Shown: positions 26,596-27,004 of the stretch, piece by piece
How positions within the stretch are numbered: position 1 is the first letter of the stretch
How the letters are laid out: each line of letters starts with the position of its first letter
From: a virus
Virus record (IMG/VR): IMGVR_UViG_3300046167_000883
Coordinates: 49,712-113,711 of that record
Reading direction: 5' to 3' (one strand)
DNA length: 64,000 nucleotides
Program-made: the position numbers and the translations under genes
The notes under the pieces: model-generated
Databases searched by the model: none
Told to the model about the DNA's origin: nothing
What the model saw: only the letters and a program-made list of their open reading frames with translations

Positions 26596-26650
26596 CTTTT
26601 GTGTTTTTTTGAACAATATGGTTTGTATTGTTCATTGAAATTTTTAATAG

Positions 26651-26993
26651 TTCTGATATTCTTAGGAGTATTGGGTAATGATCCACCATTCCAATAGGGG
26701 GTAACTAAAACGTAGTGTATAATGTGCTAAGACATAAGGCCTGTGGAATAGGCATTGATTGAGCGGTATACTGTTAGATCAATCATTTATTATGCAAGGT
26801 AACTTCGCTACATCATCTATTGGGTTAACTATTAAGTAGACCTGCCATGCCTCTGATTCAAGCATAATTTGGCGAAAAAGTATAAGAATCTGATCAAATC
26901 TTATATTGGTGTTTAGATTGAGTTCGTAATTCCTCTGCGACGGCGGGGGTTGATAAAGAGGATAAGGATTGCGCTTTTCGCGGTCGACTCCCT
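26651..26993 (+). ncRNA. candidate large structured non-coding RNA, family unassigned
   Basis: ~400 nt with no ORF >=60 aa, after TTGACT and a boxA-like TGTTCATTGAAA, directly before a tRNA; many complementary stems, including two that cross others. Confidence 0.6.
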
Positions 26994-27004
26994 CACACTT
27001 TTAA

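Follow-up and report, generated by a model that had tools for sequence, protein, structure and literature searches.

We identified, in the 64-kb window analyzed here (the whole stretch of DNA under study, from an uncultured large phage with rIIA, rIIB and clamp loader genes), what is probably the gene of a conserved, structured non-coding RNA. It occupies 26646–26998 on the plus strand (353 nt), within a 409-nt stretch that separates an open reading frame (ORF), ORF85, from tRNA-Met and in which the ORFs of both strands reach 33 aa at most. We consider it likely that this is an uncatalogued phage RNA made of three self-closed modules, of which the ~85-nt 3′ module alone is universal. A preliminary description of the locus had proposed a new structured non-coding RNA among phage tRNA genes, and our comparison with relatives and with Rfam, in which no known family matched the RNA, supports that proposal. 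Its observations that a long ORF is missing here and that the TTGACT word and other quoted motifs lie where it placed them also held.

Secondary structure and strand

The structure emerged from comparison of homologous copies. RNAalifold was applied to an alignment of 15 full or short copies (A4), and the consensus consisted of three self-closed domains in tandem (Table 1). Counted on this alignment, 98.6% of 1394 cells formed standard pairs, compared with 35–47% when the partners were slid by 1–3 columns, and 13 pairs had changed on both sides, a number of compensatory changes reached by none of 500 shuffles. The 3′ domain was aligned separately from 27 distinct copies (A6); here 96.8% of cells paired, versus 43–56% after sliding, and 8 pairs were compensatory, again matched by 0 of 500 shuffles. 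Covariation among homologues, which the preliminary description had suggested looking for, is thus present in both alignments. Indels sit in hairpin loops or delete entire self-closed domains. Numerous G-U pairs are invariant in the alignment and would become C-A on the opposite strand; the RNA is therefore encoded on the plus strand, as had been read earlier from the G-U pairs of the window.

About half of the helices listed in the preliminary description were retained. Four local ones showed compensatory or wobble-compatible changes: AATG/CATT, the hairpin ATTGAT..AGCGG-TATA-CTGTT..ATCAAT (26754–83), TATAAGA/TCTTATA, and CCTCTGC-GACG-GCGGGGG, which is hairpin B of the 3′ domain. Others were compatible with the alignment and showed no compensatory change; among these, TATTGG/CCAATA is independent of the middle domain, whereas AGGCAT/ATGCCT, GCAAGGT/ACCTGC, TCTATT/AGTAGA and CTAAGACAT/GTGTTTAG need that domain, which is missing from 5 of the 15 copies. 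The 13-bp long-range helix and both proposed pseudoknots had to be given up. Of the cells of the long-range helix (26651–63 with 26956–68), only 67% pair, and at each of four positions the pair is lost in 11–15 of the 15 copies; the crossing pairing TTCGCTA/TGGCGAA has its central G-C broken in 7 of 10, and GGAGT/ACTCC is broken in 10 of 15, its ACTCC being part of the covarying stem A of the 3′ domain.

Table 1 Features of the RNA locus and its neighbors in the window
Feature	Position	Strand	Description
ORF85	26338–26595		Upstream ORF
Leader	26592–26645	+	TTGACT 26592–97; boxA-like TGTTCATTGAAA 26630–41
5′ domain	26646–26833	+	RNAalifold consensus, pair counts on 15 copies
Middle domain	26834–26916	+	Three-way junction; compensatory changes in both arms
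3′ domain	26917–26998	+	~85 nt, conserved core; 27 distinct copies
U-rich 6-nt linker TTTTAA	26999–27004	+	Joins RNA tail to tRNA
tRNA-Met (CAT)	27005–27079	+	ARAGORN; Rfam tRNA 54.4 bits
HTH-HNH ORF	27087–27731		Pfam HNH_4, HNH; last 10 nt overlap start of tRNA-Arg
tRNA-Arg	27722–27794		

Modular architecture

The three domains differ in build. An invariant 7-bp helix (26646–52 with 26827–33) closes the 5′ domain, which contains hairpins at 26653–74 and 26677–90, a helix of 26691–96 with 26818–23, and a central multi-helix part that holds the hairpin 26754–83 with its 4-nt loop (26767–70); compensatory changes fall in helices 2, 3, 5 and 7. The middle domain is closed by ACC (26840–42) paired with GGT (26908–10), and compensatory changes affect two pairs of arm 1 (26843–50 with 26862–74) and one pair of arm 2 (26880–87 with 26900–07). 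A hairpin of 55–70 nt is inserted in the arm-1 loop of four relatives (L016, L019, L022 and L037), and the whole middle domain is missing from five others (L017, L020, L026, L031 and L035), indicating that it is dispensable.

The 3′ domain comprises a closing stem A (26920–24 with 26986–90), hairpins B (26932–49) and C (26968–84), a 19-nt purine-rich junction (26950–68) and a C-rich tail, CCTCACAC (26991–98). Its stems vary, while GUAAUU, the 19-nt junction and CCUCA are invariant. One pair of stem A occurs as U-A (17 copies), C-G (6) or A-U (4), and two G-C pairs are reversed to C-G in L063. Hairpin B has been remade from other sequence in L034, L046, L117, L063 and L043 and cut down to a C-UACG-G hairpin in L026, L031 and L055; the loop of hairpin C is variable, 3–7 nt long, and is not a T-loop. 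A 5-bp pseudoknot between junction and tail (UGAGG/CCUCA) is possible, with 95.6% of cells pairing and no compensatory change. A model of the 3′ domain (R1) scored the window at 99.5 bits (E = 4e-23), the window itself being in the seed alignment.

Architectures were assigned with domain-specific profiles and counted over distinct loci. All three domains occur in 11 (the window, L005/6, L008, L016, L018/19, L022, L024/38, L029, L034, L037 and L117) and the 5′ and 3′ domains in the five loci without a middle domain named above, whereas seven loci combine the middle and 3′ domains (L040, L044, L049/51, L043, L047, L056/57 and L065) and five have the 3′ domain only (L042/48/50, L046, L055, L058 and L063). 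In untruncated loci, neither the 5′ nor the middle domain ever occurred without the 3′ domain; nhmmer detected the 5′ domain in 16 untruncated distinct loci, each time with the 3′ domain present. At one variable site of the 5′ domain, L017, L020 and L035 carry a 40-nt insert and L117 a smaller one. Overall, the relatives of the 353-nt window RNA measure 280–430 nt.

Several loci have an upstream extension of 170–270 nt between tRNA-Gln and the RNA (L019 2279–2452, L021, L022 and L004 1358–1622), in which words complementary to stretches of the middle and 3′ domains are arranged in nested order. Judging from these words, whose columns are invariant, the extension could clamp a larger RNA of ~600 nt or form an alternative fold. 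We rejected a long-range helix between the extension and the 3′ part, as a local helix of the arm-1 insertion, GAATGA/TCATTC in L019 versus CTCTATGA/TCATAGAG in L022, fits better.

Distribution, tRNA arrays and the HNH gene

Carriers of the RNA family are uncultured aquatic phages, for the most part marine, which have it in or beside their tRNA gene arrays. It was present on ~40 contigs: five from metagenomes, more than 30 viral contigs from IMG/VR, and one binned with Flavobacteriaceae. Synteny through ORF85 served to find relatives, and a metagenome scan with an alignment of ORF85 relatives yielded 13 loci; synteny via ORF178 was broken, a different gene following ORF178 in L001. Exact-word scans with four conserved words provided the more than 30 further IMG/VR contigs. 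A word scan of 185,579 prokaryote genomes returned 52 matches, of which 51 were chance 19-mer matches according to nhmmer and one was true: L117, an 11.7-kb contig that is rich in tRNA genes and was binned with a Flavobacteriaceae metagenome-assembled genome. The 3′ domain model had no match in 150 other sampled Flavobacteriaceae genomes, and the RNA is therefore not a host RNA there. Among the cultured phage genomes of INPHARED, blastn found no match for the window copy or the larger L019 copy. Host assignment via rIIA failed, the window protein being only 25–29% identical to that of any cultured phage.

The ORF-free stretch is 95–99% identical to the window in L003, L005 and L006. In L008, the identity of the RNA stretch is 96%, that of ORF85, located 1.2 kb away, only 55%; in L004, the element is 85% identical, and eight tRNA genes plus ~270 nt are inserted between leader and element. 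The leader stands ahead of the RNA, 100% identical over 50 nt, in L003, L005, L006 and L008, and the L004 copy (88% identity) precedes the array of eight tRNAs. The leader is a probable promoter region of an RNA/tRNA operon; a consensus promoter scan of it gave a score not above chance. Comparison of the window (26596–26645) with L008 (1544–1593) showed leader and RNA to be 96–100% identical. Because leader and RNA are near-identical where the ORF85 proteins have diverged to 55%, this pair of loci suggests that diverged phages have recently exchanged the RNA cassette.

The RNA lies on the same strand as the neighboring tRNA genes without exception, typically within arrays of 5–18 tRNAs, and most relatives are found mid-array or at the array end, after 5–17 tRNAs. 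In L117, it fills the gap between tRNA-Leu and tRNA-Phe entirely. RNase P cuts the 5′ leaders of tRNAs. In 11 of 27 distinct copies, the next tRNA (Met, Lys, Phe or Gln) has its start 4–6 nt past the tail, and RNase P, in cutting the tRNA 5′ end, therefore probably also generates the 3′ end of the RNA; this abutment fits the earlier suggestion that the 3′ end is released by tRNA 5′ processing. A terminator-like GC hairpin with a T run lies directly 5′ of the RNA in L016 (~6705–6745, minus strand), L037 and L043. Because of this hairpin, the RNA may start a new transcription unit in these three loci; alternatively, the hairpin may be a processing signal.

The arrays hold further unusual elements. 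Transfer-messenger RNA (tmRNA) genes lie in the same arrays in L046 (4895–5291) and L117 (1258–1611; 104.5 bits against the Rfam tmRNA model), their tags ending in LLAA and LMAA. In L016 (6961–7043), L037 (1845–1927) and L117 (1983–2074), ARAGORN called tRNAs whose anticodon loop is enlarged and whose anticodons have four bases (CCAU; UAUG); they may be of a frameshift-suppressor type or unusual in some other way. A second conserved ORF-free module of ~80 nt stands before or after the RNA in L005 (2374–2453), L006, L043 (417–497, minus strand), L041 (from 64) and L020 (after the RNA); in L005, it occupies the position of tRNA-Met. Neither ARAGORN nor Rfam called this module a tRNA. A third conserved module, between leader or array and RNA, occurs in L008 (1594–1746), L046 (~8290–8400, minus strand) and L004 (~1500–1625); it ends in CCGTTCCTG or CGCTGCTG and includes one hairpin with a compensatory change between L019 and L004. 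Finally, L117 has, in the same array (2349–2409, minus strand), a match to Rfam freshwater-1 that at 43 bits (E = 7e-7) is below the gathering score of 72 and would represent another small RNA motif of tRNA islands.

The ORF downstream of tRNA-Met, which runs into tRNA-Arg, encodes an HTH-HNH protein that the preliminary description had considered as a partner of the RNA. We rejected this partnership: a homologue of the protein occurs in only 2 of 35 RNA-bearing loci, and L005 retains the RNA with neither the HNH ORF nor tRNA-Met. An HNH homologue at the equivalent position (75% aa identity) was found only in L047. The HTH-HNH ORF looks like an insertion of a mobile homing endonuclease.

Candidate roles and comparison with known RNAs

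As a best guess, we propose a stable RNA acting in trans. In an RNA/tRNA operon transcribed from the leader at ~26592, it would be the first product, and RNase P maturation of the tRNA-Met 5′ end at 27005 would free its 3′ end. A partner, whether a protein, an RNA or a small ligand, would then bind a specific 3D site built from junction and tail of the 3′ module, with the 5′ and middle modules as accessory scaffolds. A number of observations weigh against the overall reading of the locus as the gene of a stable RNA. The window copy alone folds no better than shuffles (z = −0.7 on the plus strand, 0.08 on the minus strand), so the case rests on its homologues. Among these, the family sample is shallow, copies of the 5′ domain being 79–100% identical, and some covarying columns reflect a single split between the window, L005 and L008 and the other copies. 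Moreover, much of the 5′ domain is invariant, and several of its helices, the closing helix included, therefore offer no covariation test. Approximately 40% of loci have no nearby tRNA; in these, the RNA occupies gaps devoid of ORFs and has the same orientation as the genes on either side, and tRNA-linked processing is therefore not the general route by which its end is formed. Expression, ends and stability of the RNA are what we infer from sequence.

A special case of the trans-acting RNA would be self-assembly in the manner of ROOL and GOLLD, two large phage RNAs compared below, with homo-oligomers held together by loop-loop docking. The 26767–70 loop reads UAUA, UAUG or CAUG in all copies, which is self-complementary if wobble is allowed, and never CAUA, and the hairpin loop 26681–86 (AUCCAC) complements an invariant GUGGA at 26743–47. 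The niche, phage tRNA islands and a place beside tRNA-Met, is also of the GOLLD type, as is the layout with a universal 3′ and a variable 5′ part (PMC12286853). However, four nucleotides make a poor kissing partner, the loop pattern is based on three states only, no match to RF01998 or RF03087 appeared even at E ≤ 1–10, and at 280–430 nt, with a core that alone measures 85 nt, the RNA is far smaller; we regard self-assembly as unlikely. Still less probable, in our view, is a role in cis within the tRNA operon transcript, be it as a processing or stability leader or as a put/boxA-type antitermination RNA. In the window, the RNA does come first after a conserved leader with a boxA-like word, and a tRNA follows it directly in the 11 of 27 copies mentioned above. 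Nevertheless, the mid-array or terminal position of most relatives behind 5–17 tRNAs, the ~40% of loci without any tRNA and the changing identity of the next tRNA (Met, Lys, Phe or Gln) do not suit such a role, and known leaders need far less than 355 nt of conserved structure.

With similarly low probability, the 85-nt 3′ domain could act as a ligand-sensing aptamer or a small ribozyme. Around its three-way junction, the stems are free to vary, whereas junction strands and tail are invariant; the domain stands autonomously in five distinct loci, and the L063 copy lies just before a Shine-Dalgarno-like word and an ORF. The possible UGAGG/CCUCA pseudoknot would fit as well, with its 95.6% of pairing cells, but it has no compensatory change; furthermore, no Rfam ribozyme or riboswitch matched, and the downstream gene is not consistent. 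A feature of the DNA, such as a tRNA or intron remnant, an HNH recombination or homing site, or a spacer, is disfavored and seems to us highly improbable. The compensatory and G-U-preserving changes fit one strand only, the HNH gene is missing from 33 of 35 loci, and no tRNA, intron or tmRNA model matches, not even weakly. These results stand against the homing-type HNH gene 80 nt downstream, the shuffling of modules among phages, and the much greater similarity across phages of RNA and leader than of flanking genes, for which recent DNA exchange is a possible explanation. With the trans-acting RNA as our preferred reading, we also entertain a broader and rather speculative idea, for which we see a modest chance: the ~85-nt 3′ module may be a new autonomous ribozyme, aptamer or docking unit for RNA assembly that phages have grafted onto swappable scaffolds. 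If so, phage tRNA islands would be a general reservoir of modular catalytic, binding or self-assembling RNAs.

In the Rfam scan, the window matched only the two tRNAs, at the gathering score and at E ≤ 10, and eight relatives matched, at E ≤ 1, tRNAs, the L117 tmRNA and, in L117 only, the sub-threshold freshwater-1 motif. By this measure, the RNA family appears new and is absent from Rfam, although it may figure among the 8,495 IMG/VR candidates of PMC10690425. RNase P RNA (RF00010, RF00011 and relatives) and group I and group II introns were rejected, with no model match at E ≤ 10; an intron is also at odds with the promoter-like leader and the complete tRNA that border the RNA. A tRNA or tRNA scaffold was likewise dismissed, neither RF00005 nor ARAGORN matching within 26600–27004 at E ≤ 10. 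A likeness of three short words to the 3′ minor domain of 16S rRNA was judged to be chance, ~0.5 ten-mer matches being expected. A tmRNA-like word in L046 had raised the idea of a tmRNA, which was dropped because the arrays of L046 and L117 contain genuine tmRNA genes at other positions, and the RNA is therefore no tmRNA. It resembles phage tmRNA (RF00023) in its ~350 nt, its place within phage tRNA arrays and its proposed tRNA-type processing, but differs in having neither tRNA-like ends nor a tag reading frame, and neither ARAGORN nor Rfam (RF00023, RF04321) called it.

The tRNA cluster of phage T4 encodes species 1 and 2, stable non-tRNA RNAs of ~120–140 nt on the tRNA strand that are cut from a common precursor and have no known function. 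They share with the window RNA the position in a tRNA cluster and are shorter. Few large structured RNAs are known that have no protein partner, and those few (GOLLD, ROOL, OLE and raiA) have driven recent structural work. At 353 nt and with a stand-alone 85-nt core, the RNA described here has a size that suits easy biochemistry, and its natural variants (full, without the middle domain, middle plus 3′, and 3′ only) indicate which parts are essential. Its presence also suggests that tRNA islands encode much beyond tRNAs, which bears on why phages keep tRNA arrays.

The nearest analogues are GOLLD (RF01998) and ROOL (RF03087). Neither Rfam model matched the window, at the gathering score or at E ≤ 10, or the eight relatives at E ≤ 1, and the RNA therefore lies outside both families. 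ROOL is a large structured phage and prophage RNA whose genes lie in the neighborhood of tRNA islands, and neither a function nor a protein partner is known for it (PMC12286853). Whereas ROOL has a single pseudoknotted fold, the window RNA, the smaller of the two, forms a string of self-closed modules. GOLLD is a phage and prophage non-coding RNA of tRNA islands, without a known function; its 3′ region is universal, its 5′ region varies, and a marine representative is located next to tRNA-Met (PMC12286853). The window RNA is less than half its size (353 versus ~800 nt or more), and its ~85-nt core occurs alone. What the two have in common is the location in tRNA arrays and a universal 3′ part with optional additions, here the 5′ and middle domains, a likeness of layout only and not of homology: the RNA described here occupies the niche of GOLLD and ROOL, the tRNA islands of phages, and yet is unrelated to them by sequence.
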